From Candidatus Saccharibacteria bacterium RIFCSPHIGHO2_12_FULL_41_12 (GTDB lineage Bacteria; Patescibacteriota; Saccharimonadia; Saccharimonadales; 2-12-FULL-41-12), in assembly GCA_001790445.1 (NCBI GenBank), contig MGCQ01000008.1:26676-90675 (forward strand): a DNA stretch of 64,000 nt. The letters are read 5' to 3'. Below the pieces are notes generated by a model that was not told the DNA's origin, searched no databases, and was given only the letters and a program-made list of their open reading frames with translations. Numbering within the stretch: the stretch's first letter is position 1; the number at the start of each line of letters is the position of its first letter. A program made the translations under genes and the position numbers. Of the stretch, positions 3,190 through 57,608 are shown in pieces.

Positions 3190-3230
3190 AACAATAATGT
3201 ATCATCTTTTCTTGGCATTGGTACAGCAGT

Positions 3231-3259
3231 TTGCAAAGTAAAGTATTATTTGGGATAAT
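3231..3259 (+). promoter_or_regulatory. sigma-70-type promoter candidate for the pilin-like array
   Basis: TTGCAA (3231-3236), a 17-nt spacer, then GATAAT (3254-3259), 18 nt upstream of the ATG at 3277. An AAGG ribosome-binding site lies in between. Confidence 0.4.
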
Positions 3260-3276
3260 AATAACTAAGGTAAAAA

Positions 3277-3981
3277 ATGAAAAACTTTCACCTAAAAATA
3301 AAAACCACCATAGCCTTTTGCTATTTTATTATTGCATTGTCTGTTCTTTTTGGAGGACAAGGATATGCTGAAACAGTGAGCTGTGGTCCGCTTAATTCAG
3401 TGGACAGGACTATCTGTGAAGCAAGTTTGACTCAGTGTGGGGACAGAGACACGGATAGTGATAAAGCTTGTAGAAAAGGATTTCGTGAAGGAGCGAAGAA
3501 AACAGGCGATAATAAAAGCGATGCTTGCAAGAGCTTCAAGAGCAACAATAAAGCTGAGTGCGAAAATGGCTACAACGCAGGGGCAAGTAAACAAGATGCT
3601 CTTAACAAAGAGGCATCTGCCCAAGCTCCATCACCAATTCCGGGTTCGGTAGGGACGCACCAGTGTGGCAATTTAAGTGATAAATCTGAGAACGTTAATA
3701 CAAAAATCAACTTTGGGTGTTTGGGCTCAAAGGCACCAGGTGGAACGGGCCCAATAGAAGACCTCTTGTATGCTTTAATCCGTTTTCTTTCAAATGGCAT
3801 AGGCATCATGATGGTGGTAGCTCTTATTGGTGCAGGCATAAAGTACACAACTAGTGAGGGCAATGCAGAACAAACTATGAAAGCCAAAAGACAAATCCAA
3901 AATATAATAATTGCTCTATTTATCTACCTATTTACGTATGTGATTTTGCAATTCTTAATCCCAGGAGGGATATTTAAATAA
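3277..3981 (+). CDS. VirB2/TrbC-topology pilin-like protein, paralogue 1 (234 aa, long 8-Cys ectodomain)
   Basis: Signal-like N-terminus (IAFCYFIIALSVLFGGQGYA), an ectodomain with 8 Cys, and a C-terminal two-helix hairpin (GIGIMMVVALIGAGIKYTTSEGNAEQTMKAKRQIQNIIIALFIYLFTYVILQFL). Confidence 0.55.
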   Translation: MKNFHLKIKTTIAFCYFIIALSVLFGGQGYAETVSCGPLNSVDRTICEASLTQCGDRDTDSDKACRKGFREGAKKTGDNKSDACKSFKSNNKAECENGYNAGASKQDALNKEASAQAPSPIPGSVGTHQCGNLSDKSENVNTKINFGCLGSKAPGGTGPIEDLLYALIRFLSNGIGIMMVVALIGAGIKYTTSEGNAEQTMKAKRQIQNIIIALFIYLFTYVILQFLIPGGIFK

Positions 3982-3997
3982 GGTATAATATGAACCA

Positions 3998-4381
3998 ATG
4001 ATAAACTTCTTAAATATCTTTAACTTTTTTGCAGCCAGCGGAGAAACACCTGCAGAAGTGGCTTGTCAAAAAGGTAGCTTTTTTGCCTTCCCTACTTGGT
4101 ATAAATATCTAGAGGTGGATACGAATTATTGCAACCCAAAGATAGACAATATCAATGACATTTGGTTGATAATGCTGGCAATAGTCGAAATTTTGATTCG
4201 GCTTGGAGTGATTTTGGCTATTATCTTTATAATTTATGGGGGCGTAAGTTTAATAATGGCTCGTGGCATTCCAGAAAAAGTTAACTCGGCTCGTGACATG
4301 ATTATAGATGCTATAACAGGACTTGTTATTGGTCTGGTGGCTATAACGTTGATCAGTTTCTTGGGGAAGAGTTTTGGTTAA
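3998..4381 (+). CDS. VirB2/TrbC-topology pilin-like protein, paralogue 2 (127 aa)
   Basis: Short hydrophobic N-terminus, a 2-Cys ectodomain, then TM1-loop-TM2 (ILAIIFIIYGGVSLIMARGIPEKVNSARDMIIDAITGLVIGLVAITLISF). Confidence 0.55.
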   Translation: MINFLNIFNFFAASGETPAEVACQKGSFFAFPTWYKYLEVDTNYCNPKIDNINDIWLIMLAIVEILIRLGVILAIIFIIYGGVSLIMARGIPEKVNSARDMIIDAITGLVIGLVAITLISFLGKSFG

Positions 4382-4382
4382 G

Positions 4383-4700
4383 ATGTTGGACAAGATAAAT
4401 TTTTTCATACTAGCAATTAGCAAACCTATAAACTGTGAAAGTGGCGCCAATTGTCAAACAACCCTTCCCGAAATAAAAGCCACAGACGCAACTGCAGAGA
4501 AGATATTTGGAATTATTTTTGGCACTATTGCTGCAGTAGCAATACTTATAATTGTGCTGTCAGCGCTGAACTGGGCGATTCGGGGTGGCGACCCAGAAGT
4601 TATTACTCGCTCCCGAAAAGCCATAATCTATGCAGTCGTTGGGCTTGCTATTGCTCTACTTTCTGAAACGTTGGTACTAACGCTCCTGAACAGGGTATAA
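4383..4700 (+). CDS. VirB2/TrbC-topology pilin-like protein, paralogue 3 (~105 aa)
   Basis: The track ORF starts at TTG 4374, overlapping the upstream stop, so I prefer ATG 4383 (MLDKINFFILAIS). It has a 2-Cys segment (NCESGANC) followed by TM1-GGDPEVITRSRK-TM2. Confidence 0.55.
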   Translation: MLDKINFFILAISKPINCESGANCQTTLPEIKATDATAEKIFGIIFGTIAAVAILIIVLSALNWAIRGGDPEVITRSRKAIIYAVVGLAIALLSETLVLTLLNRV

Positions 4701-4701
4701 A

Positions 4702-5109
4702 ATGAAAAAACCCTTACTCATATTAATTATTACGCCGATATTATTGATTTTTTTGCAAGCCTCCGCCCAAGCTGTAGATCTATTCAGGAATAACTGTAAT
4801 GGATCTGCCGCAGACTCAGCCGTTTGTAAGGACAAAAAAGCTGTAGAAAAAGCAGATGCGTCAAAGAATGAAGATAACCCGATATTTGGTCCAAACGGCA
4901 TAATAACTATAATTACAAATATTTTGTCAGCGGTGGTCGCTATAGGGGCAGTTATATCAATTGTTTATGCTGGCATGAAATTGATTTTTTCGGGGTCTAA
5001 TCCTCAAGAAGCAAACAGTGCCCGTGAGAGGATTATCTATGCATGTGTGGCTTTAGTGTTTGTTGCACTAGCCCAGATAATAGTCAGGTTTGTTATCAAT
5101 AGGTTATAA
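4702..5109 (+). CDS. VirB2/TrbC-topology pilin-like protein, paralogue 4 (135 aa)
   Basis: Signal peptide (LLILIITPILLIFLQASAQA), a 2-Cys ectodomain, then TM1-SGSNPQEANSARER-TM2. Confidence 0.6.
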   Translation: MKKPLLILIITPILLIFLQASAQAVDLFRNNCNGSAADSAVCKDKKAVEKADASKNEDNPIFGPNGIITIITNILSAVVAIGAVISIVYAGMKLIFSGSNPQEANSARERIIYACVALVFVALAQIIVRFVINRL

Positions 5110-5121
5110 TCGGTAGTAAAT

Positions 5122-5526
5122 ATGACAAAAACATTAATTACAAAGATATTACTTGCAACCCTGCTTTTAGTCGGAGTCTTCCAATATTCTGCAAATGTGC
5201 CGGTCTTTGCCCTAATAGGCTCTGGTTCTAAAGAACAAGCTTGTAAAGGTGCAGAGCTTGATAATGCAACAGGGGCAAATTGTGGTGAAAAGGCCAGTTC
5301 AGATACACAAAAAATATTGGAAAGTGTGATAAATATCATGTCGGCTGTTGGTGCTGTGATTGCTGTGCTGGTAATCATCGTCAATGGGATCAAATTGGTC
5401 CTGTCTTCTGGAGATTCTGCCAGAGTTAACACCGCTCGTTCAGGAATAATTATGGCGGTAGTTGGGCTGATTGTCATTGCCCTTGCGCAGACTTTAGTTA
5501 AATTTATTATCAACAGGGTGGGTTGA
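5122..5526 (+). CDS. VirB2/TrbC-topology pilin-like protein, paralogue 5 (134 aa)
   Basis: Signal-like N-terminus, a 2-Cys loop (ACKGAELDNATGANC), then TM1-SSGDSARVNTARS-TM2. Confidence 0.6.
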   Translation: MTKTLITKILLATLLLVGVFQYSANVPVFALIGSGSKEQACKGAELDNATGANCGEKASSDTQKILESVINIMSAVGAVIAVLVIIVNGIKLVLSSGDSARVNTARSGIIMAVVGLIVIALAQTLVKFIINRVG

Positions 5527-5585
5527 TGAGTGTGCAAAGTTGTGCTATAAAGTAATTAGAATATAACAAAAGGAAACCAAAGAAA

Positions 5586-5999
5586 ATGAGAAAATTTATT
5601 AGACAAATAGTTACCACATTAGCACTGGCTACTGTCATGTTAACACCAGCACTAGCGACAACTTCAGTATTTGCGGCTGACATAGACAAGAGCCTTTGCA
5701 AAGGGGCTGAACTGAAGCTTAGTGGAGAAGGAGATTGCTCAACGACTGAAGCAGCAGGAACAGGTTTAGACAAATTGATAACAGATGTTGTTAACATATT
5801 TTCCGTAATTGTCGGCGTAGTAGCCGTAATAATGATCATCTACGGTGGTTTCCGCTATATCACTTCAGGTGGGGACTCTGGTAACGTTACTACTGCAAAA
5901 AACACTATTCTCTACGCTCTTGTCGGGCTTGTCATAGTTGCCTTGGCGCAGTTTATCGTAAAGTTTGTACTGAGCAAGGCCACTGGGCTCGGCGACTAA
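5586..5999 (+). CDS. VirB2/TrbC-topology pilin-like protein, paralogue 6 (137 aa)
   Basis: AAGGA ribosome-binding site. Signal peptide ending VFAADI, a 2-Cys loop (LCKGAELKLSGEGDC), and the C-terminal hairpin NIFSVIVGVVAVIMIIYGGFRYITSGGDSGNVTTAKNTILYALVGLVIVALAQFIVKFV. Confidence 0.6.
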   Translation: MRKFIRQIVTTLALATVMLTPALATTSVFAADIDKSLCKGAELKLSGEGDCSTTEAAGTGLDKLITDVVNIFSVIVGVVAVIMIIYGGFRYITSGGDSGNVTTAKNTILYALVGLVIVALAQFIVKFVLSKATGLGD

Positions 6000-6010
6000 G
6001 GTTTGCAAAG

Positions 6011-6445
6011 ATGAAAACTAAAATATTTTCGTTCGTATTTGGGCTGAGCCTTCTCGTCTCGTTTGCAGGTGCCATGAATACCAGTACTGTTCTAGCAGAT
6101 TCTAAAAGTGAACTTTGCAGTGGCGCAAACTTTGATATAAGTGGTGGTAGCGATGCAGGTTGTGATGGTAAATCTGCCTGTGAAGACGACCCATCTAAAG
6201 CAAATTGTCCGGCAGGCAAGCTAAATACCCTGATCAACAATATAGTTAACATTTTATCTGTAATTGTCGGTGTTGCTGCCGTAATTATGATCATTTATGG
6301 CGGGTTTAGGTACGTTACTTCTGGGGGCGACTCTGGCAATTTGACTACAGCGAAAAACACCATACTCTACGCTCTCGTCGGGCTTGTTGTGGTTGCCTTG
6401 GCGCAGGTGATCGTTAAGTTTGTGATTAACAAAGCCAGTTTTTGA
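6011..6445 (+). CDS. VirB2/TrbC-topology pilin-like protein, paralogue 7 (144 aa, 4 Cys)
   Basis: AAGG ribosome-binding site, a signal peptide and a 4-Cys ectodomain. The C-terminal hairpin is nearly identical in protein sequence to paralogues 6 and 8. Confidence 0.6.
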   Translation: MKTKIFSFVFGLSLLVSFAGAMNTSTVLADSKSELCSGANFDISGGSDAGCDGKSACEDDPSKANCPAGKLNTLINNIVNILSVIVGVAAVIMIIYGGFRYVTSGGDSGNLTTAKNTILYALVGLVVVALAQVIVKFVINKASF

Positions 6446-6489
6446 AGCCGAGACTTTGAAGTCTCTCTCAGTCTATGGTATAAATTAGT

Positions 6490-6906
6490 ATGATGAGACT
6501 TTTGATGTACTCACTGGCTAGCGTGTCCCTGTTTTTGGCTTTTTTCTCACCAGTATTTCTATCCTCAAGCGTTTACGCAGCAGATATCTCGAATAATCTT
6601 TGTAAAGGAGCGGACTTGCGGTTTAGTGGCAATGCAAACTGTGCCGATACCACTAAAGATTCCAGCGCCAAGCTAGACAAGCTGGTAACCGACATAGTCA
6701 ATATATTTTCTGTCATTGTCGGTGTAGTCGCAGTGATCATGATTATTTATGGCGGATTTCGCTACATTATTTCTGGTGGAGACTCTAGCAATGTCACCAA
6801 TGCGAAAAACACCATACTCTACGCTCTCGTCGGGTTAGTCGTAGTCGCTTTGGCGCAGTTTATCGTAAAGTTCGTACTGAGCAAGGCCACTGGGCTTGGG
6901 GTTTAA
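6490..6906 (+). CDS. VirB2/TrbC-topology pilin-like protein, paralogue 8 (138 aa)
   Basis: Signal peptide ending VYAADI and a 2-Cys loop (LCKGADLRFSGNANC). The last ~50 nt of coding DNA differ from paralogue 6 at only one position. It is preceded by a small hairpin (gagactttgaagtctc) and a TGgTATAAA extended -10-like box. Confidence 0.6.
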   Translation: MMRLLMYSLASVSLFLAFFSPVFLSSSVYAADISNNLCKGADLRFSGNANCADTTKDSSAKLDKLVTDIVNIFSVIVGVVAVIMIIYGGFRYIISGGDSSNVTNAKNTILYALVGLVVVALAQFIVKFVLSKATGLGV

Positions 6907-7069
6907 CTCGACTTACGCAAATCTCCACACTCTCAAACTCTCCAGATGAGTCCAGAACCCCTTTTTCTGATGTCACCACACCTACCAGGTGTGCTTCCAC
7001 CAGAGAAAAGAACTTCTAAATCTCCTCTGGAAGATTCTGGAGAATGCGGAGATTTGCGTAAGTCGAGTT
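6905..7069. repeat. 165-bp long-hairpin repeat, copy 1 (MITE-like or structured RNA)
   Basis: The termini aactcgacttacgcaaatctcc and ggagatttgcgtaagtcgagtt are reverse complements, and the interior also pairs (tctccaga/tctggaga, ctttttctg/cagagaaaag, apex cacacct-acc-aggtgtg). The element is ~96% identical to 49158-49322 and begins inside the stop codon of pilin paralogue 8. Confidence 0.85.
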
Positions 7070-22291: not shown

Positions 22292-22542
22292 TATACTAAG
22301 TTAAGTAATTACCTTGTTACTACGTGGAAATAGGTAATTGAGCGTACAACAATACAGACCTTTGAGCGCTCGCTTGCAAAAGCTTATATCGGCATACCCT
22401 TATGATAGTTTTTGGTTTTGTTTTGTTTGCGCACAAGGTAGCTACCTAGTTTGCATTTTTCCGGACGTTTTTGTTTCAATTTTAGTATAATCCCAAAACC
22501 ATAAGCAATGCAACACTATTATTTTACATAACAAATAAACAC

Positions 22543-23046
22543 TTGCGCTAAAGCCTCCAAGGAGGCTTTTATCACCTTACTTTTTCTCACTAGCAAGAAA
22601 AAGTAAGCAAAAAGTGCCACCCCGGTGATCAAAAACTGCCCTAAGATTAAATAACTACAAACATACTATTCTTCCGGGACTCCTTCCAGTCGGGGACAAG
22701 CCCTGGTCCTCAGAATAATCTGTCTGTAGCCATTTAATCTAAAGGTGTTTTGACCAAGGGGACATTAAGCGGTCTAAAGTCATAATTAATAATATTTCCT
22801 ACGGAAATATACAAGGGAAGCTTGGGTCAGGCCTTGAGCAGACCTGAGAGATTTCGTCGAGATTACAACTATCAGACGAGGACTGTTTGAATGACCAAAG
22901 GGAGAGAGTTCCGCAGTCTGTTGTAATCTTCGACAAGAAATCACTTCAAGTCTGTTCAACCGCCTGCTACTTCTTTGCATACTTTCTTGTTAGCACAAGA
23001 AAGTATGGTGTATCAGGCCCTATTGGGCCGACGCAATGCATTTTTT
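22543..23046 (+). repeat. ~510-bp structured intergenic repeat, copy A (full length)
   Basis: Shares end modules and long internal blocks with 29667-30176 and 57033-57550, and its 3' half matches the reverse complement of 41217-41465. Modules: outer ttgcg...cgcaa, terminator-like GC hairpins, 12-bp sub-terminal hairpins, and apical hairpin atatttcc-tac-ggaaatat at 22791-22809. Confidence 0.9.
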
Positions 23047-23070
23047 GTATCTGTGAGAAGACAGACAGTT

Positions 23071-24129
23071 TCACATCTGTAAGGATGGCTCGATTTGTAG
23101 CGATTTATAGTCAACTAACTTCTTATTTTTCATATAAATTTGTGATCCCTGGGAGGCGATCATTGCTCCATTGTCAGTCGATAATTTTGGATCTGTTGAA
23201 TGCACTTTAGCCCCAAACAGTTCCTTTGCTCGTGTGCGCAAATATTGATTAGCAGATACTCCACCAGTGATAACGATGTTTTTGGACGCAAATTCTTGTT
23301 CTGCCTTGATTAGTTTTTCTAACAAGGTTTCTATTGCGGTGTATTCAAAACTAGCGGCAATATCGGCTTTTTGTTGATCTGATAGATGTTGGGCAATCTT
23401 TAAACTAGGGAAGGTGTAGTCTTTACCAATAACCTGTTGAGACAGACGAAGAACAGCTGTTTTCAGTCCAGAAAAGCTAAAATCGTAGGGGTTTTCTAGG
23501 CGGGATTTTGGTAGTTGATAGGTTTTTTGATCACCCTGCTTTGCTAACTTTGAAATACTTGGCCCACCAGGATATGGCAACCCCAAAATCTTCGCAACTT
23601 TATCAAATGCCTCACCCACTGCGTCGTCACGAGTCTTGCCCAAAACTTCGTATTTGGTAGGGGACAGATAATACACTATTTGACTGTGCCCACCACTGAC
23701 AATTAGGCAAAGGGCAGGGAACTCAAGTGGGGCTTTGGGTAGGTGATAGTTAAGTGATGTTTTAGTCAAAAAATTAACGGCCATGTGGGCCTGAACATGG
23801 TCAACTGGTATAAGCGGTTTGTCGTAAATTTGACCAAGTGTTTTGGCAGTCATAACCCCGACTAGCAGGCTCCCACCAAGCCCTGGACCATAAGTTACTG
23901 CGACAGCATCAATATTTGTCCACGTGCACCCTGCCTGCTTCATGGACTCAGCCAGAACTGGGATTATATATTCTATCTGTGCACGCGCTGCTACCTCTGG
24001 GACAATGCCTCCATACTGAGCTTGCAGATCCATAGAAGAAGCCACAACGTTGGACAGTAGTTCGCAGCCATCTTTTACTATTGCTACAGCTGTTTCATCG
24101 CAACTTGTCTCTATCCCTAAAATTAACAT
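23071..24129 (-). CDS. tsaD: tRNA N6-adenosine threonylcarbamoyltransferase
   Basis: MLILGIETSCDETAVAIV N-terminus plus Kae1/TsaD family length and motifs (GGVSAN, HMxxH-type region VDHVQAHM). Confidence 0.9.
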   Translation of the reverse strand: MLILGIETSCDETAVAIVKDGCELLSNVVASSMDLQAQYGGIVPEVAARAQIEYIIPVLAESMKQAGCTWTNIDAVAVTYGPGLGGSLLVGVMTAKTLGQIYDKPLIPVDHVQAHMAVNFLTKTSLNYHLPKAPLEFPALCLIVSGGHSQIVYYLSPTKYEVLGKTRDDAVGEAFDKVAKILGLPYPGGPSISKLAKQGDQKTYQLPKSRLENPYDFSFSGLKTAVLRLSQQVIGKDYTFPSLKIAQHLSDQQKADIAASFEYTAIETLLEKLIKAEQEFASKNIVITGGVSANQYLRTRAKELFGAKVHSTDPKLSTDNGAMIASQGSQIYMKNKKLVDYKSLQIEPSLQM

Positions 24130-29624: not shown

Positions 29625-29666
29625 GTTCTTTTCCAAAGAATTTAACATCTTAAAACCCAAACAACA

Positions 29667-30176
29667 TTGCGATTGCGCTAAAGCCTCCAAGGAGGCTTTT
29701 ATCACCTTACTTTTTCTCTCTAGCAAGAAAAAGTAAGCAAAAAGTGCTACCCCAGTGATCAAAACAAACCCTGAACCTACAAGACAACAGACAAGACTAT
29801 TCTTCCGGGACTCCTTTTAGTCGCCCCGCCTGAAGGCGGGGTAGTCCTCAGAATAATCTGTCTGTAGCTTTGTAGTTCCAAGGTGTTTTGACCAGGGGGA
29901 TATTAAACAGTCTAAAGTCATAATTAATAATATTTTCTATGAAAATATACAGATTGATAGTCAGGCCTTGAACAGACCTGAGAGACTACGTCAAGATCAC
30001 AACTATTAGACGAGGACTGTTTGACCCCGCCTAAAGGCGGGGGAGTTCCGCAGTCTGTTGTGACCCTTGACCGGTAGTCCCATCAAGTTTGTTCAATCGC
30101 CTGCTACTTCTTTGCATACTTTCTTGTTAGCACAAGAAAGTATGGTGATTAAAAGCCTGCAGGGCTTTAATCGCAA
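29667..30176 (+). repeat. ~510-bp structured intergenic repeat, copy B (full length)
   Basis: The outer closing pair cattgcga (29665-29672) / tcgcaatg (30171-30178). It has the same end modules as copy A and carries two ccccgcc-NNNN-ggcgggg hairpins (29824-29841, 30025-30043) at positions where copy A has other sequence. Confidence 0.9.
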
Positions 30177-30222
30177 TGAGTTATTTGCTGTTCGCAAGCT
30201 TTATCACAAGTGTTTATATTTT

Positions 30223-35097: not shown

Positions 35098-35126
35098 TTG
35101 ACATATCGTACCTAAGTATATACAAT
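35098..35126 (+). promoter_or_regulatory. promoter of the second DinJ/YafQ-type TA operon, with dyad
   Basis: TTGACA (35098-35103), 17 nt, then TACAAT (35121-35126). The inverted repeat cgtacc...ggtacg spans the spacer and -10 box. Confidence 0.55.
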
Positions 35127-35136
35127 GGTACGTATC

Positions 35137-35418
35137 ATGAGTAGTTCAACAACAATGAATTTCAAAATAGACAAAGATCTCAAGGTACAGGCAAAGAAGA
35201 CAGCCTCTGCTATTGGTATTCCATTGTCTACTTTGCTTAATGCTTATTTGATTGATTTTGTCGCAACAGGTCGTGTTGAATTCACTGCTTCCGAACAGAT
35301 GACTCCACAGATGGAGCGGATCATTGAAGAATGCGAACAGGACATAGCAGAAGGTAACCTAAGCGGGCCTTTCCACACAAAAGAAGAATTATTTGAGCAC
35401 TTGGATAGCTTGAAGTGA
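35137..35418 (+). CDS. RelB/DinJ-family antitoxin (second copy)
   Basis: MNFKIDKDLKVQAKKTASAIGIPLSTLLNAYL pattern. The track start at 35125 lies inside the -10 box, so ATG 35137 (or 35155) is preferred. Confidence 0.7.
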   Translation: MSSSTTMNFKIDKDLKVQAKKTASAIGIPLSTLLNAYLIDFVATGRVEFTASEQMTPQMERIIEECEQDIAEGNLSGPFHTKEELFEHLDSLK

Positions 35419-35672
35419 TAATTGAGACAACCAGGAAATTTGATAAGCAATACGCAAAATTACCACAGAAAACTAAAACTCAGTTCAAAAATAGAGCCAC
35501 TATTTTTAGATTAGAGCCCCATCACCCAAGCCTAAGGAACCATGCATTAAAGGGTAAATACCAAAATTACAGGAGTATAGACATAACAGGAGATGTAAGG
35601 GCTATTTATACAAAACGCGGTGAAACTATAGTAATCTTTGGTTTTATCGGCTCCCACAGCCAACTCTACTGA
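35415..35672 (+). CDS. YafQ/RelE-family mRNA interferase toxin (second copy)
   Basis: LRNHALKGKYQNYRSIDITGDVRAIY...IGSHSQLY. Its start overlaps the antitoxin stop by 4 nt. Confidence 0.8.
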   Translation: MIIETTRKFDKQYAKLPQKTKTQFKNRATIFRLEPHHPSLRNHALKGKYQNYRSIDITGDVRAIYTKRGETIVIFGFIGSHSQLY

Positions 35673-35718: not shown

Positions 35719-35754
35719 ATATCATTTTCGCAACACGTGTATAATAAATGATAT
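35719..35754. promoter_or_regulatory. 36-bp palindromic motif, copy 1 (ATATCATTTT-N-AACACGTGT-N-AAATGATAT)
   Basis: atatcattttcgcaacacgtgtataataaatgatat. It has 9-10-bp outer arms plus an ACACGTGT core. The same 36-bp layout recurs at 36388-36423 and 41523-41558. Confidence 0.7.
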
Positions 35755-36387: not shown

Positions 36388-36423
36388 ATATCATTTTTGC
36401 AACACGTGTTTAGAAAATGATAT
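36388..36423. promoter_or_regulatory. 36-bp palindromic motif, copy 2
   Basis: atatcatttttgcaacacgtgtttagaaaatgatat. Confidence 0.7.
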
Positions 36424-37566: not shown

Positions 37567-38481
37567 ATGAGGGCAAAATTATCTAAGTTTATTCTGGAGG
37601 CTAGGAAGAAGTCTCTTTTTATAATAATTTTTTCGGGTATTCTTCTTCTAAGTATTTTATTAATTTTTAGTCTTTTTAGGATCCTAACTGCTACTGGGGG
37701 AATAGCTTTGATAGTAGACAATAAGAAATATTCAAAGACAAATGTAGAAAAGTATATTAAGTATGGTGAAGACACAGGGCTTGATAGAGAACAAGCAATC
37801 AATGCAGTGGTCGAAAATTTAAAATTTCTTGCTGCAGCAGATAAACTTGCAACTAAGTATGACCAAAATAAAGTCGATAACAGATATAATGAGCTAAAGA
37901 AAACATATAAGAAGTCTGACTATGGAGATTACTTAAACAAATTAGCTCAAAAACAGATAATTGCAGAAGATTTACAACAAGGAGATATTCAGAAGGGGTA
38001 TTACTTTGAATTTTATTATGGACAGCATATCCAAACAGGTCCGGGCAATAAAATCGCAGGGGTAGGTGACAAAAACCTGATTGAGAAAGACCGACAGTAT
38101 GCAAAAGCACGTGCAGACTATTATTATAATATCTTGAAAAACCAGAAAGTTTCTGCAAGTGACACTTATGCTATGGTTCAGCAAGAGGTGCAAAAAGACC
38201 CGACAAATGCGGGTGTGCATATTTCTACCAAGCCATTTGGCAATAACTCGTCTGAAGAATGGCAGGATGAAATTCAAAATAGTGAAACGATATCAACCGT
38301 TTATTCAACTAGTGGAGTCAGTGATATCAAAACAAGAAAAGGGGCAGTTAATATTGGACCTTCTTCTCTGATGACAGATGTGGCTTACTATATTATTGCA
38401 AAGACAAGTGGCAATAATAATGCGGAAATTACTAGATTTAAAAAAACAATAGATAATTTAAAAGTTGAAAGAAGGATATGA
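37567..38481 (+). CDS. hypothetical membrane-anchored protein (SurA-N-like chaperone resemblance, weak)
   Basis: N-terminal TM (LFIIIFSGILLLSILLIFSLF) and a helical Lys/Asp-rich ectodomain. The stop overlaps the next gene's start (ATGA). Confidence 0.45.
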   Translation: MRAKLSKFILEARKKSLFIIIFSGILLLSILLIFSLFRILTATGGIALIVDNKKYSKTNVEKYIKYGEDTGLDREQAINAVVENLKFLAAADKLATKYDQNKVDNRYNELKKTYKKSDYGDYLNKLAQKQIIAEDLQQGDIQKGYYFEFYYGQHIQTGPGNKIAGVGDKNLIEKDRQYAKARADYYYNILKNQKVSASDTYAMVQQEVQKDPTNAGVHISTKPFGNNSSEEWQDEIQNSETISTVYSTSGVSDIKTRKGAVNIGPSSLMTDVAYYIIAKTSGNNNAEITRFKKTIDNLKVERRI

Positions 38482-41180
38482 TTAATAAAAGATTAACCCT
38501 AGTATTTAAAGCTTTAGGTTTGTTTGTGGTATTTAATCTGTTATTTATTATCTTCGGTAGTCAGACAATTCAAGCAAGGTCTTGTGGTGTCGATACGAAA
38601 AATGTGCATGACTATGCTGGACTCATGGTTAATATGCGTTGGCAGCATAATGGAGGAGGGGCGTACTTTGAATCAAACAATACAAAAGTGAGACTTAATA
38701 CTATAGGAGATGTTAGTACCCCACCTGGGGGTATAGTTTATGTAAGCGGTGGTGCAGAACAAGATCGCAAGGACTCCTCAACCTTTCAACAAAAAGATTT
38801 TCCAGGGTGTGAGTACAACTCATCGGGAGACAACCATATGGTAATGCTCGGATATGATGGAAGTTCTAGAAGAGATGTGGCTGGTGACGGAAGAGCAGAC
38901 AGCTGGATGATTGACTGCGATTCAAGTATAAGAGACCCGGATGATAATGATACTCACCCTGGTTGGGATTCTAAGTACCAAAAATTTAGAGTTAGTGCCG
39001 TCGGGGTTCCAACAGGAGCAATTCCTGGCGGAAAGTGGCACGCGGTGGGGAGCGCTAACCCGTTTGAAGATGTAGCACCAGCAAATGGATTTACCAAAAA
39101 AGTTACTTTAGTGTACGAGGAGCCGTATGTACCCCCAAATAATCCAGCTTGCACATACTACAGTCACCCTGTTTATGCTAATTCAGCACATAGGTTCACA
39201 GTGTTTGGGCGTGGTGCTACGGTTAGTCCAACTTCACCAACTGATGGCGGTATTCATACGACCAGAGACCTTAGTGCAGACGGGGTAGCTAATATATCTT
39301 GGGCAAGCCCGCTTCCTGGGTATGTTTGGCAATCATCAGTTATAAATCCCTGGAGTGATTACACTTGGGACAAAACTTTAGGTTCTGGTGATACCCCTCC
39401 TGTTGATAGTGGGTGGCAGATATTGTACGAACGTTGGTATGAATATAGAAACGCTGCCAACAAAGTAAGGTATCAATATTTTAGAGAAGTTACCACAGTA
39501 GATGATTGTTACAAAGCTGATATAGATGAGCCGGGAGCAGGCTGTTCAAGCTTACATATCGAGGGAGATAGGCCACCAGGAGGTAATGCAAATTCAGTTA
39601 AGGCTGGAACTAACTTTACCGTTTCGGGTGGTGTCAAGAATACAGGGAACATGAATATACCGATAACCGTAAAAGTTATAGATGGCGGAGGAATGGCTGG
39701 TAGCCAGGATGACGTTGGTAGCCTAGGTCCAGGTCTTCCAGCCCCATTCGATATACCAATGACGTCTATAAATGATGTTTCCCATAGAATTGTTACTGTC
39801 CAACCTCAATATAATGGATTTGCTATAGGCGGGGACTGTTCAATAGAAGTTGATACTTTTCAGCAGTTTAATATTACACCGATTGCTACCCTAGATACAG
39901 CACAAAATGATAACGAAAATCCTACAACTATACACTTTAACTACGGTGGTACTAGACAATTTGGACCAGATACAACGTCAGCAGGATCCTACACTGTTGC
40001 TGAGGCAAATCCAACTCTGGGAGACCCAACAATCCTAGTGGCTGGTGACACTACATCACCTATAGATGGGCCAAACGGGACCAATCTTACATACCAAAAT
40101 CAAAACATTGCAGGAAGCTACACTAATGCAAACATCAGGGCTACATTATCACCCGGAGAAAGATATTGTATCATTACCAAAATAACTGAGGCATTCGGAT
40201 GGCTAGGTCCTCATGGGAAGGTTGGCACTGGACCGTCGAGCAAAGATAGTTGCGCACGCGTGGTCAACAAGCCTTATGTGCGGTTTTATGGACAGGATGT
40301 CTTTGCTGGGGGCAATTTCCCAGATAGGGCTAGCGTAACCGGAGCAATTAGTACAAATAACCGAGCGCGTGCCGGATCAGGCGTAGAATATGCGGCTTTT
40401 GCCCTGGGAGCAATAGGTGGATTTAGCTCTAGTGATTTGCGATCGGATGGGTTTTTTGACCAGCTTAATTTTGCATCTTCTCCAAAAGGCAACTTTGGCG
40501 GATCGCACACAGCCACTGACTACTTTGCCAACAAACCAGACAACGCCACAGGAATTGCTTCCACTGCCACGCCATCTGGCACCCCTGTCCCAGTGACAAC
40601 GCCCCCTACAGAGGGAATTAACTCATACATAGCCGGCAATCTTACTCTAAATGCTAATACAAGCTTTTCTGGCAAACAAACCATCTTTGTCAGTGGAGAT
40701 GTCTATATAAGTGGCAACATTGTGTATGCTCCTTGGGGACCGAATATTAATGCTATCCCTAGCTTTAGGCTAATTGTAAAAGGTAACATCTATATCGACA
40801 AAGACGTCACGCAAATTGATGGATTTTTGGTAGCACAGCCAAATGGCGCCACCGGTGGAACAATTAGCACTTGTTCCAATAGTAGTGGAGCAAATGGTAG
40901 TTTGACCACTACAGGAGATAGAACTCCGACTAACGGTGAATGCTCTAGACAATTAGTTTTCAACGGAGCGCTAGTTGCCCAAAAGATTAAATGGCTCAGA
41001 ACATTTAAGACGCTTAGTGATGCAAAGCTCAGCGGACTGGAACCATATGACAACAACAGCTCTGCCGAGATTGTTAATACCTCGCCTGACTTTTACCTGG
41101 GCATACCTGCAGATCCGCCATCTGGTGGTGGCACCAGTGGTAAATATGACTCTTACCAAGCATTGCCACCAATACTTTAA
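38478..41180 (+). CDS. large secreted surface protein (900 aa) with CARDB-like Ig segment and beta-helix-like C-terminal region
   Basis: Signal peptide (ALGLFVVFNLLFIIFGSQTIQA). The segment SVKAGTNFTVSGGVKNTGNMNIPITVKVIDGG resembles CARDB domains. The C-terminal region shows repetitive GDVYISGNIVY / KGNIYIDKDV strands. Confidence 0.5.
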   Translation: MINKRLTLVFKALGLFVVFNLLFIIFGSQTIQARSCGVDTKNVHDYAGLMVNMRWQHNGGGAYFESNNTKVRLNTIGDVSTPPGGIVYVSGGAEQDRKDSSTFQQKDFPGCEYNSSGDNHMVMLGYDGSSRRDVAGDGRADSWMIDCDSSIRDPDDNDTHPGWDSKYQKFRVSAVGVPTGAIPGGKWHAVGSANPFEDVAPANGFTKKVTLVYEEPYVPPNNPACTYYSHPVYANSAHRFTVFGRGATVSPTSPTDGGIHTTRDLSADGVANISWASPLPGYVWQSSVINPWSDYTWDKTLGSGDTPPVDSGWQILYERWYEYRNAANKVRYQYFREVTTVDDCYKADIDEPGAGCSSLHIEGDRPPGGNANSVKAGTNFTVSGGVKNTGNMNIPITVKVIDGGGMAGSQDDVGSLGPGLPAPFDIPMTSINDVSHRIVTVQPQYNGFAIGGDCSIEVDTFQQFNITPIATLDTAQNDNENPTTIHFNYGGTRQFGPDTTSAGSYTVAEANPTLGDPTILVAGDTTSPIDGPNGTNLTYQNQNIAGSYTNANIRATLSPGERYCIITKITEAFGWLGPHGKVGTGPSSKDSCARVVNKPYVRFYGQDVFAGGNFPDRASVTGAISTNNRARAGSGVEYAAFALGAIGGFSSSDLRSDGFFDQLNFASSPKGNFGGSHTATDYFANKPDNATGIASTATPSGTPVPVTTPPTEGINSYIAGNLTLNANTSFSGKQTIFVSGDVYISGNIVYAPWGPNINAIPSFRLIVKGNIYIDKDVTQIDGFLVAQPNGATGGTISTCSNSSGANGSLTTTGDRTPTNGECSRQLVFNGALVAQKIKWLRTFKTLSDAKLSGLEPYDNNSSAEIVNTSPDFYLGIPADPPSGGGTSGKYDSYQALPPIL

Positions 41181-41216
41181 GGTTTCTAACAGCTTACTTT
41201 TCTCAATAACACCTTT

Positions 41217-41465
41217 TTGCCATCCCGCAGTGGCGGGACTGATGCAACATACTTTCTTGTGTTGACAAGAAAGTATGCAAAGAAACAACAGGCGGTTGAA
41301 CAGACTTGATGGGATTTCTTGTCGAGTATTACAACAGACTGCGGAACTCTCTCCCTTTGGTCGTTCAAACAGTCCTCGTCTGATAGTTGTAATCTCGACG
41401 AAATCTCTCAGGTCTGCTCAAGGCCTGACCAACAATCTGTATATTCCCGTAAGCAATATAGATTT
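41217..41465 (-). repeat. ~510-bp repeat family, copy C: inverted, 3'-half only
   Basis: This is the reverse complement of the 3' half of copy A, from the sub-terminal hairpin catactttcttg...caagaaagtatg through ...ctcaggtctgctcaaggcctgacc to the apical region. The terminal GC hairpin is replaced by tcccgc-agtg-gcggga. The 5' half is absent. Confidence 0.85.
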
Positions 41466-41522
41466 GGGATCAGATGTTGAGCAGACCTAAAAGGATAATG
41501 TTTGAATTTTCAATATCATTTT

Positions 41523-41558
41523 CTGAACACGTGTATCGAAAATGATATTTGCAAAACT
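41523..41558. promoter_or_regulatory. 36-bp palindromic motif, copy 3
   Basis: atatcattttctgaacacgtgtatcgaaaatgatat. Confidence 0.7.
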
Positions 41559-41593
41559 ATTTATACAAATGAGAGAAGTGGCTGTGGTAATAC

Positions 41594-41623
41594 TTGACAG
41601 TAAAAGTAAGAATTTGGTAAGAT
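41594..41623 (+). promoter_or_regulatory. promoter of the VapBC-type TA operon
   Basis: TTGACA (41594-41599), 18 nt, then TAAGAT (41618-41623) with a TGg extended -10. The ATG at 41630 follows after 6 nt. Confidence 0.5.
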
Positions 41624-41629
41624 AGTATT

Positions 41630-41866
41630 ATGAGTTATGATTATACAATTACTTCAAAGGGACAGATTACTTTACCCAAAAAACTGAGAGATACGGTAGG
41701 GCTTAAGACAGGTAGTCATGCGAATATTTCCTTGCTAGATAATAGAACAATTATTATTAGGGCTCCTCTGGGCATTGAAGAAATTCGTAAAAAGATTGGT
41801 GCTCCGGCTAACGATCAACCTCTGACAAAAAAAGAAAGCTCCAGATTAAAAGCAAGAGGTCTTTAG
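41630..41866 (+). CDS. AbrB/SpoVT-domain antitoxin (VapB/MazE-like)
   Basis: ITSKGQITLPKKLRDTVGLKTG swapped-hairpin motif, immediately upstream of a PIN-domain gene. Confidence 0.75.
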   Translation: MSYDYTITSKGQITLPKKLRDTVGLKTGSHANISLLDNRTIIIRAPLGIEEIRKKIGAPANDQPLTKKESSRLKARGL

Positions 41867-41872
41867 CCAAAA

Positions 41873-42247
41873 ATGACGATAATCGATGCGAATTACATAT
41901 TGAGATGGTTTTTGAATGACGATGTGGATCAAGCAACTTTTGTGAGAGATTTGATTATCAATTCTGGCTCCAAGACGCTACTTGTAGATAGAATCACGAT
42001 TGCCGAGGTGACATATGTGCTTAGGTCAATGAAGTATAATCATCAACAGATATATGAACTTTTTGAAGAACTTTGTTATTACCCAAGCTTATTGCCCCTA
42101 GGGGAGATAGAGGGTATGGCACTAGATATTTACAGAGATACAAATCTGGACTTTGAAGATGCAACACTGGTTGCAAATGCGAAGATAAACAATTATAAAT
42201 TGGGCACTTTTGACAAAAAAATGATTAATTTGCTGAAGAGTTTATAG
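41873..42247 (+). CDS. PIN-domain ribonuclease toxin (VapC-like)
   Basis: IIDANYILRWF (first acidic residue) ... EVTYVL ... FEDATLVANA pattern. 124 aa. Confidence 0.7.
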   Translation: MTIIDANYILRWFLNDDVDQATFVRDLIINSGSKTLLVDRITIAEVTYVLRSMKYNHQQIYELFEELCYYPSLLPLGEIEGMALDIYRDTNLDFEDATLVANAKINNYKLGTFDKKMINLLKSL

Positions 42248-42251
42248 ATCT

Positions 42252-49157: not shown

Positions 49158-49322
49158 TACTCGACTTACGCAAAATCTCCACACTCTCAAACTCTCCAGA
49201 TGAGCCTAGAACTCCTTTTTCTGATGTCACCACACCTACGGGTGTGCTTCCACCAGAGAAAAGAACTTCTAAATCTCCTCTGGAAGATTCTGGAGAATGC
49301 GGAGATTTGCGTAAGTCGAGTA
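49158..49322. repeat. 165-bp long-hairpin repeat, copy 2
   Basis: About 96% identical to 6905-7069. All differences fall in the 5' arm or apex (an extra a at gcaaaatc, gagcctagaactcc versus gagtccagaacccc, and ctacgggtg versus ctaccaggtg). The 3' arm is identical. Confidence 0.85.
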
Positions 49323-57018: not shown

Positions 57019-57032
57019 ACAACTTTAGCTTC

Positions 57033-57550
57033 TTGCGCTAAGCCCTTGGCAGGGCTTTTATCACCTTACTTTTTCTCTATAGCAAGAAAAAGTAAGCAAA
57101 AAGTGCCACCCCAGTGATCAAAACAAACCCTGAACCTACAAGACAACAGACAAGACTATTCTTGCGGGACTCCTTCCAGTCGGGTCTAAAGACCTAGTCC
57201 TCAGAATAATCTGTCTGTAGCTTTGTATCTCCAAGGTGTTTTAATCAAGGGGATAATAAGCAGTCTAAAGTATTTAACCACTGTGTTTTCCTCCAGAAAA
57301 CACAGATTATTATGATCTAACTGCTTTTGAACCAGGCCTTTGAATAACTGATGAAATATCTATTCAAGCAACGCCATGTTTTGAGGACTACCCCGCCTTC
57401 AGGCGGGGCGACCAAAGGGAGTCCCGGAAAAACTGGGTTGGTTGGATAGATATTTCAATCATGTTACTTCAATAGCCTGCTATTTCTTTGCATACTTTCT
57501 TGTTAGCACAAGAAAGTATGGTGATTGAAAGCCAAAGGCTTTAATCGCAA
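57033..57550 (+). repeat. ~510-bp structured intergenic repeat, copy D (full length, divergent 3' half)
   Basis: The left 220 nt are nearly identical to copy B. The central apical hairpin is replaced by ctgtgttttc-ctcca-gaaaacacag. The 3' arm is largely different but retains a ccccgcc-ttca-ggcgggg hairpin (57391-57408), the sub-terminal hairpin and the terminal aaagcc-aaa-ggcttt hairpin. Confidence 0.88.
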
Positions 57551-57608
57551 CGGGGTTACGAGCTTATTCATAATAAAGAGTTTATAAATAAAAGTGTATA
57601 ATTAGCCT

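Follow-up and report, generated by a model that had tools for sequence, protein, structure and literature searches.

REP sequences and REPINs, the repeats associated with RAYT proteins, are multi-copy intergenic palindromes that often lie between convergent genes, form long hairpins as inverted doublets and vary in copy number between related genomes. In these respects they resemble a repeat family present in a 64,000-nucleotide stretch of DNA (hereafter the window) from Candidatus Saccharibacteria bacterium RIFCSPHIGHO2_12_FULL_41_12 (contig MGCQ01000008.1), in which four repeat copies, A, B, C and D, occur and of which copy C, on the minus strand, is the subject of the present analysis. However, REP sequences are 20-40 nt and REPINs about 100 nt long, species-specific and accompanied by RAYT, whereas the unit of the present family measures about 220 nt, combines a covarying rod with a pseudoknot, a possible triplex and a 3' motif identical across phyla, and is found without RAYT or Y1 transposase in the scanned open reading frames (ORFs) of the window or at 39 loci of other genomes (loci and contigs of other genomes carry L-numbers below).

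The ends of IS200/IS605 elements, PATEs and the omega RNAs of TnpB and IscB are comparable to the family in their strand-specific hairpin signals, their non-autonomous derivatives and the structured RNA derived from one end. The two ends of an IS200/IS605 element are not inverted copies of each other, whereas the halves of a unit dimer are; in addition, the units have no linked transposase or TnpB and no Rfam match, and no evidence of a guide segment such as that of the omega RNAs was seen at the units. Correia, ERIC/IRU, BOX, RUP and RPE repeats are likewise dispersed, 100-500 nt long, strongly structured and located near gene ends, and some are transcribed and processed. They are, however, confined to a genus or family and defined by terminal inverted repeats and target duplications; the monomer of the present family has no terminal inverted repeats, no target duplication was visible around A, B, C or D, and the family spans phyla with deep covariation.

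Among structured RNAs, the telomerase RNA pseudoknot, the SAM-II and preQ1-II riboswitches and ENE/MALAT1-type triple helices have the arrangement proposed for the unit, in which a helix rich in A-U pairs lies beside a pseudoknot stem and its purine strand is accompanied in parallel by a U-rich strand, the triplex of ENE-type elements protecting an RNA 3' end. They have no sequence or Rfam relationship to the unit, in which the triplex is a candidate and the module is 3'-terminal on a long rod and multi-copy. ROOL, GOLLD, OLE, raiA and HEARO resemble the unit in being elaborate, conserved, patchy across phyla and sometimes present in several copies, but none of their models matches it in gathering-threshold or E-value scans, and the unit differs in its rod and pseudoknot hairpin, its divergent dimers and its insertion polymorphism. 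Copy C is considered here, as the probable though not secure reading, to be an intact unit of a strand-specific structured element of about 220 nt that acts as a copy-number-variable non-coding RNA module.

Copy C as one complete unit of a modular family

Three repeats of about 500 nt (A, 22541-23038; B, 29665-30178; D, 57031-57552) are present in the window, and an alignment of the four copies places C, on the minus strand, along the right half of the long copies only. The original prediction had described C as an inverted copy of the right half of A lacking the left half, and this description holds: the best inverted pair joins 22825-23020 to 41235-41430 (196 nt, 93% complementary), and searches with nhmmer and the covariance model return a single unit at the C locus, the left half of the repeat not being found there. 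The predicted start of the repeat, 37 nt after the stop of a 900-aa gene, was also reproduced, as the 3' end of C lies at about 41213-41217, 33-37 nt past the stop codon (41178-41180) of the ORF 38478-41180.

The left halves of the long copies, when reverse-complemented and aligned with the right halves, proved to be homologous to them. Both halves have the same layout, which from 5' to 3' consists of a rod, a short segment x, a U-rich linker, a 12-13-bp hairpin (hp2) and a terminal hairpin ending in ..CGCAA, and in each the long rod is tipped by GAGGAC-(variable hairpin)-GAC..GGAGU(U/C)CCG. With a unit profile, nhmmer detected seven units in the window, namely three on the plus strand (R-type), three on the minus strand (L-type) and C. 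A covariance model (R1) built from four R-type units only recovered the three L-type units with E-values of 1e-12 to 1e-16. Since both halves are homologous inverted units, the repeats described as "full-length" represent dimers: in A, B and D, two diverged units of about 220 nt are inverted relative to each other and joined 5'-to-5' (divergently). Copy C is an intact monomer, and the "apex" of the long copies is the short spacer between the 5' ends of the two units. The monomer is also the form seen at most loci in other genomes. Annotation should accordingly treat the "500-nt repeats" as dimeric, with a 220-nt unit as the basic model, and should not discard solo units as mere fragments.

The covariance-model score of C (242 bits, E about 1e-64) is level with those of the R units of A and B, and its RNA fold of -89.8 kcal/mol corresponds to a z-score of -7.5; together, these values exclude a chance match. 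Identity between C and A varies along the unit, from 94.5% in the rod and 88% in the pseudoknot and hairpin to 57% in the terminal domain, with 87% over the whole unit. The suggestion that the 3' half is the functional or selectable module is borne out insofar as C is a self-contained, conserved module that keeps its helices, pseudoknot and terminal domain, but not in giving the 3' half a privileged status, the 5' half being an inverted unit of the same kind.

The relationship between the halves also bears on the proposed analogy with the right-end RNAs of IS605-type elements, according to which C would be a guide RNA (omega RNA or similar) that has outlived the rest of its transposon. The resemblance is a loose one and lies in the presence of a 3' module that is structured and multi-copy. 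What would have to be the left end is this module again, in inverted orientation, no tnpA or tnpB or remnants of them lie beside any unit examined (50 window ORFs; 39 loci), and neither IS605-orfB nor HEARO of Rfam gives a match. The analogy thus failed all the tests run, and such an origin is regarded as very improbable. The terminal inverted repeats of a classical miniature inverted-repeat transposable element are lacking as well: monomer C and the monomers of other genomes are intact without terminal inverted repeats, and the dimer ends are inverted merely because the dimers are.

Some minor features of the copies may be added. A GC-rich mini-hairpin, CCCCGCC-NNNN-GGCGGGG, stands at the rod tip of the L- and R-type units of dimer B (L_B, R_B) and of the R-type unit of dimer D (R_D), at 29823-29840, 30025-30042 and 57391-57408, the rod tips of A, C and L_D having another sequence or none; the hairpin at the rod tip can thus be exchanged as an insert, and the copies have a mosaic make-up. 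L_B and L_D are 96% identical over 130 nt while R_A and R_D differ strongly, a mosaic pattern that suggests recombination or gene conversion among the copies. Just beyond the 3' end of C, at 41199-41212, the sequence cttacttttctca is similar to the 5' arm of hp2 in L-type units (CTTACTTTTTCTCA) and may be a relic of an older copy or a chance likeness.

Covariation, pseudoknot and strand

A unit is made up of four parts, a covarying rod of about 145 nt, a pseudoknot on a near-invariant hairpin, a U-rich linker and a variable terminal hairpin (Table 1). Alignment of the L and R units together with MAFFT and RNAalifold aligned the rods poorly, and an alignment of 24 units from the window and other genomes to the covariance model was used instead. 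Across these 24 units, 89.6% of the cells at paired positions hold standard pairs, as against 39-45% with the partners slid by 1-3 columns, 63 of the 71 pairs have changed on both sides, and no shuffle out of 500 reaches any of the observed measures; these figures are inflated by an alignment fitted to the model, which favours structure as well as G-U over A-C, but the gap between the observed pairing and the controls is large all the same. The 19 homologues that were folded independently all form a rod followed by two 3' hairpins.

Copy C retains the helices, the pseudoknot and the terminal domain, in places by compensatory substitutions. Its terminal GC hairpin, correctly predicted to have a different sequence with the same shape, replaces ggccc-tatt-gggcc of A and aaagcc..ggcttt of B and D, the 4-bp closing helix has changed compensatorily from GUGU/ACGC in A to UUGC/GCAA in C, and both helices of the terminal domain (helices 10 and 11) covary across the family. 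The rod of R_D is just 56% identical to that of C, yet its pairing is kept through compensatory pairs. The hp2 hairpin is near-invariant (CAUACUUUCUUG / CAAGAAAGUAUG), with 6 of its 13 pairs never varying, and has a variable loop.

This loop (x') is complementary to x, a segment of five or six bases directly upstream of the 7-nt linker. The x/x' pairs observed number more than 12, e.g. UGCUA/UAGCA, UGUUG/CAACA, UGUCA/UGACA, CUUGAA/UUCAAG, AGCCCC/GGGGCU and CUUGCC/GGUAAG, and the mean longest complement of x with x' is 4.73, compared with 3.70+-0.13 with the loops of other units (0 of 2000 permutations). Between copy A (UGCUA/UAGCA) and copy C (UGUUG/CAACA), two pseudoknot pairs have changed on both sides, and all five differences between C and A in the segment from x to hp2 sit in or beside x and x'. 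The allele of C is also present in two other metagenome-assembled genomes (MAGs) of Saccharibacteria, L014 and L005. The x:x' pairing, whose complementarity covaries across the family, is predicted from these comparisons to be an H-type pseudoknot.

Read in parallel, the linker 5'-UUCUUU-3' matches the hp2 purine strand 5'-AAGAAA-3' in one register as U.A-U and C+.G-C Hoogsteen triples. The L-type units and the L-type partner in L032 combine a linker CUUUUU with a purine strand GAAAAA, L031(-) combines UUUUU with AAAAA, and L035(+) keeps UUCUUU/AAGAAA while other stem positions change. The linker probably lies in the major groove of hp2 as a U.A-U / C+.G-C triplex. A U-rich strand parallel to a purine strand beside a pseudoknot stem is characteristic of the telomerase, SAM-II and preQ1-II type of pseudoknot.

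In the Oscillospiraceae MAG RGIG4265 (L004, L006, L016, L018, L026, L028), an upstream GUGUCA can pair with the hp2 loop (GACAAG) and also with a second copy, (C)AUGACAAGG, located about 12 nt downstream of hp2; the two partners could represent alternative pairing or a switch. Other identities considered for these motifs were rejected, namely a sigma-54 promoter for x and linker (wrong spacing), a tyrosine-recombinase core site for hp2 (which leaves the x:x' and linker covariation unexplained) and domain V of a group II intron (no AGC triad or bulge).

At paired columns, the 24 units contain 122 G-U against 30 A-C combinations (96 against 25 with the seed sequences excluded, p=5e-11), and in 31 of 44 units the fold of the unit strand is more stable than that of the complementary strand. 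Both the G-U bias and the greater stability of the unit strand indicate that selection acts on the structure of one strand in single-stranded form. Such a strand-specific structure is most simply read as RNA, and single-stranded DNA (ssDNA) is also compatible with it. Under the RNA reading, a non-coding RNA would most probably be transcribed from the minus strand at C, with the 3' pseudoknot-triplex and terminal hairpin as a putative protective or recognition cap and the rod as a putative scaffold for binding a protein or an RNase.

Several points, besides the inflated covariation counts, weigh against this reading. Copy C taken alone folds equally well on both strands, single-sequence thermodynamics assigning no strand, and the strand bias by itself does not separate RNA from ssDNA, since G-T wobble and T.A-T triplexes form in ssDNA too. 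The triplex is based on about three linker/stem variants, with few independent events, and the near absence of connecting residues around x' implies a tight geometry in which the top pairs of hp2 may have to open. Consensus scans yielded no convincing sigma-70 promoter for C or the dimers, the matches being no more than expected by chance, a terminator scan found 0 intrinsic terminators in 41100-41700 and 22450-23120, and neither a partner protein nor a mobilising enzyme was found among the 50 window ORFs and the neighbours at the 39 loci.

The main rival explanation is a mobile element acting at the level of DNA, in which the hairpins are ssDNA signals for a trans-acting HUH/Y1 transposase (as in REPIN-RAYT or IS200/IS605-PATE systems), the dimers are REP doublets and an RNA function is unneeded. 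Such an element would agree with the multi-copy, intergenic occurrence beside gene ends, with the inverted doublets, with insertions that are present or absent relative to relatives, with a G-T bias compatible with ssDNA and with the near-invariant 12-bp arms of hp2 around a variable spacer, which are reminiscent of a protein-binding site. On the other hand, Pfam scans of the 50 window ORFs revealed housekeeping or ordinary functions (e.g. ValRS, TsaD, GroEL, DnaG, RpoD, PolA) and no transposase, TnpA (Y1_Tnp), TnpB, RAYT, reverse transcriptase or integrase domains, and clustering of the ORFs within 2.5 kb of the 39 loci gave no common neighbour protein, let alone a shared transposase. The whole rod of about 145 nt covaries over a deep divergence, far beyond the needs of a transposase end, the covariation of the loop with the upstream segment and of the linker is what RNA tertiary structure typically shows, the hp2 motif is identical across phyla in contrast to the species-specific REP sequences, and two Sphingobacterium species apparently keep the unit at one locus. 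The ssDNA element is, on balance, thought unlikely, though it is the most serious competitor of the RNA module.

The position of the units relative to genes raises the further possibility of a cis-acting terminator, insulator or 3' untranslated region stabiliser that works within the mRNAs of the flanking convergent genes. In 15 cases a unit has its 3' end at 0-60 nt from that of a convergent gene, close to the stop codon of the latter, and in 1 case it is equally close to the 3' end of a same-direction gene; the outer hairpins of the dimers (AAAGCC..GGCUUUUAU) are terminator-like in the sense of the incoming gene. Against this, the scan finds no terminator at A or C, the terminal hairpin of C is not followed by a U-tract on either strand, the strand that is conserved and tolerates G-U lies antisense to the gene it abuts, a 220-nt rod with a pseudoknot far exceeds what termination needs, and relatives manage with spacers of 16-82 nt at the same junctions. 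A role of this kind is deemed improbable.

Distribution across phyla and insertion at sites C and D

The exact hp2 motif occurs at 39 loci of the GTDB genome collection, in several phyla. Its carriers include many Saccharibacteria/Patescibacteria MAGs, Oscillospiraceae (at least 7 unit copies in one MAG), other Eubacteriales, two Sphingobacterium species, Neisseriaceae, Burkholderiales, one gammaproteobacterium, Brevinematales and Limnocylindria. The ORFs flanking the unit in the two Sphingobacterium species are homologous, and the unit is thus apparently at the same locus in both. Outside the Candidate Phyla Radiation (CPR) the rod is shorter, usually a hairpin with a tip like ..GAGC-loop-GCGAGUU, and x, the linker, hp2 and the 3' hairpin follow in their usual arrangement. 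The covariance model identified monomers in the Saccharibacteria loci L005, L019, L021, L022 and L038, and in L030 from Limnocylindria, and divergent dimers in the Saccharibacteria loci L024, L031, L032, L039 and, with a 770-nt gap, L035; in most other lineages only monomers were observed.

Scans of the window, of units A and C and of 18 homologous loci against Rfam 15 (gathering threshold and E<=10) gave no family match at the units; the matches in the window were 4 tRNAs, and nothing but tRNAs, a T-box, a group II intron and GP20-b matched across the scans outside the units. Viral contigs contained 0 exact matches to the motif, plasmids had no blastn match to unit C, and a search of the literature on the motif sequence and on CPR repeats and non-coding RNAs found nothing relevant. 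The unit family is therefore absent from Rfam 15 and uncatalogued. If confirmed, this widely distributed structured element would join the short list of cross-phylum bacterial non-coding elements, and in its pseudoknot with a probable triple helix it offers a well-defined tertiary motif that is directly testable. Sphingobacterium nematocida (L007) has a group II intron at 2427-4357, some 1 kb away from the unit, consisting of a 605-aa ORF followed by a match to Rfam Intron_gpII (4261-4357); the intron was not seen in the part examined of the syntenic locus L015.

For a comparison of gene order, relatives were located by protein look-ups after metagenome loci anchored on PGI (80 loci, 794 kb; 51-66% identity) proved too distant, these having no unit and no synteny upstream of PGI. 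The sole detectable homologue of the 900-aa protein (51% identity) is encoded on contig L127, in the order HisK - PaaX_M - (DUF6364 + ParE-like) - 284 aa - 300 aa - 903 aa - MFS - PGI - DUF1361 - ArgRS. There, 82 nt separate the 903-aa gene from the MFS gene that follows, and no unit was detected in 17.5 kb with the covariance model and filters off. L132-L134 (PGI 75%, including Hainich MAG contigs) and L135 (PGI 73%), which are closer relatives than L127 by their housekeeping genes, also have a homologous large gene followed directly by the MFS gene, with a gap of 16 nt in L133 and L135 and of 46 nt in L132 by its own gene call. Site C is thus empty in three other lineages, represented by L127, L132-L134 and L135. 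As the large gene of the relatives adjoins the MFS gene directly, C together with mazE-vapC constitutes a lineage-specific insertion of 1.07 kb. The mazE-vapC pair is not at the orthologous junction in any relative examined, and arrived together with, or beside, unit C.

The variable piece at this locus is accordingly the toxin-antitoxin cassette with the unit, which corrects the earlier hypothesis that the boundary of an island of genes for secreted proteins was created within the repeat. That hypothesis is refuted by L127, in which the island (PaaX_M, 284-, 300- and 903-aa genes) is in place with no repeat in 17.5 kb; the repeat does not mark the island boundary.

Site D gives a similar picture. 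Two relatives (PolA 75% identity) have an IMPase-polA spacer of 43 nt, compared with 590 nt including dimer D in the window, and the site is empty in L128-L131. The loci fetched from relatives (about 143 kb with some overlap) contain no units by the covariance model, against seven in the 64 kb of the window, which indicates a recent gain in the window lineage and a patchy presence among Saccharibacteria. No flanking direct repeat that would represent a target duplication is visible at A, B, C or D, and the empty sites of relatives are too diverged to align. The variation in copy number and the absence from the sampled orthologous regions of relatives suggest that the unit behaves as a non-autonomous mobile or duplicating RNA gene, and the family has expanded in the window lineage by inserting beside the 3' ends of genes. 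An episymbiont genome of roughly the 1-Mb class is thus shown to tolerate or use a recently expanded repeat of 220-500 nt between core genes (ValRS/TsaD, GroEL/response regulator, polA).

A broader proposal is offered more tentatively, as a possibility that is doubtful at present. The units would represent an uncatalogued class of structured RNA of several phyla with the 3' pseudoknot-triplex hairpin as the functional core, be it an exonuclease-blocking cap, a site of ligand or protein recognition or a catalytic centre; the class would spread in the manner of a non-autonomous mobile gene, either as monomers or as divergent dimers. Its colonisation of this reduced Saccharibacteria genome, at a density of about one unit per 9 kb, would be recent.

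Table 1. Units of the repeat family in the window, parts of copy C and features of the insertion that contains it (R1, covariance model)
Feature	Position	Strand	Remarks
Copy C, one complete R-type unit (monomer)	41213..41434	-	R1 242 bits, model positions 1-222; nhmmer E=2e-68
Rod domain of C, long imperfect hairpin	41291..41434	-	tip GAGGACUGUUUGA...GAGUUCCGCAG; 94.5% identical to R_A rod
x, pseudoknot 5' strand, UGUUG	41286..41290	-	pairs with hp2 loop CAACA (41260-41264)
Linker UUCUUUG, candidate third strand of triplex	41278..41284	-	UUCUUU putatively parallel to AAGAAA of hp2
hp2, near-invariant 13-bp hairpin	41248..41277	-	CAUACUUUCUUGU-CAAC-ACAAGAAAGUAUG; x' in loop (41260-41264); 98.7% of cells paired
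Terminal domain	41213..41247	-	closing helix UUGC/GCAA and inner hairpin tcccgc-agtg-gcggga (41223-41238); 57% identical to A, architecture kept
Central AT-rich hairpin	41440..41460		tatatt-cccgtaagc-aatata; from alignment and folds; counterpart of dimer-centre hairpin, e.g. 22793-22811
Stub, first ~34 nt of a second, inverted R-type unit	41455..41488	+	contains 12-nt partner 41477-41488
Lineage-specific 1.07-kb insertion between 900-aa gene and MFS gene	41181..42251		unit C, stub, D5 palindrome, mazE, vapC; gap of 16-82 nt in relatives
mazE (AbrB/MazE-type)	41630-41866		part of 1.07-kb insertion
vapC/PIN	41873-42247		part of 1.07-kb insertion
L-type unit, dimer A	22541..22768	-	R1 52.5 bits, E ~1e-12
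R-type unit, dimer A	22820..23038	+	R1 243 bits
L-type unit, dimer B	29665..29908	-	R1 64.9 bits
R-type unit, dimer B	29954..30178	+	R1 240.9 bits
L-type unit, dimer D	57031..57260	-	R1 50.7 bits
R-type unit, dimer D	57325..57552	+	R1 182.6 bits

Inner end of copy C and neighbouring elements

A new inverted partner had been predicted at the inner end of C, and it is indeed present as a perfect inverted repeat of 12 nt (aggtctgctcaa, 41410-41421, and ttgagcagacct, 41477-41488). This repeat is the core of an imperfect palindrome of 34 nt: 41455-41488, when inverted, has 27 of 34 identities to the first 34 nt of C, and 22 of 25 identities to the leader of R_A, a score equalled by 0 of 2000 shuffles. 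From this match to the unit leader it follows that the inner end of C bears what is left of a second, inverted unit of R-type, a stub. Homology to the other two regions with the D5 palindrome (see below) begins at about 41493, which places the junction of the repeat with the toxin-antitoxin cassette at about 41489-41492.

The stub may have arisen in two ways, by truncation of a palindromic dimer by the cassette or by a local fold-back duplication. In the former case, C would be the remnant of a dimer whose second unit was deleted or replaced as the D5-mazE-vapC cassette arrived, its solo state being accidental. The end of the stub of an inverted R-type unit at 41488, its direct contact with the promoter/operator region of the cassette and the common occurrence of dimers in Saccharibacteria are in line with such a truncation. 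However, the stub belongs to the R-type and the partner units of dimers A, B and D to the L-type, so that either the ancestor was an unusual R/R palindrome or the stub is a fold-back duplication, and monomers are frequent elsewhere. Truncation, which is entertained as plausible but not preferred, concerns only the history of the locus and is compatible with the retained unit being intact and functional.

The D5 palindrome, ATATCATTT-N18-AAATGATAT (with a CACGTG core in the window), occurs at 35719-35754, 36388-36423 and 41513-41548 of the window, upstream of the PaaX_M-domain gene, the 286/304/900-aa operon and mazE-vapC, and at 6734-6769 and 7402-7437 of L127, upstream of PaaX_M and the DUF6364/ParE-like pair. 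It was found only in loci with a PaaX_M gene, and not in L128, L130, L133 or L135. D5 is probably the operator of the PaaX_M regulator, judging from this co-occurrence; if so, the secreted-protein operon and the toxin-antitoxin modules would belong to one regulon. The pair of DUF6364 and ParE/YafQ-like genes lies upstream of PaaX_M in the window (35125-35672) and downstream of it in L127 (7459-8054), a change of position that is a local rearrangement of a toxin-antitoxin-like cassette.

Elsewhere in the window, direct repeats of about 150 nt at 6919-7068 and 49173-49321, 42 kb apart, are 96-100% identical and have no relationship to the unit family. Small paralogous genes form a run over 3277-6906; at least 5 of them have a type IV secretion pilin domain (PF18895), and the run includes three tandem repeats of about 450 nt (5767-6906).

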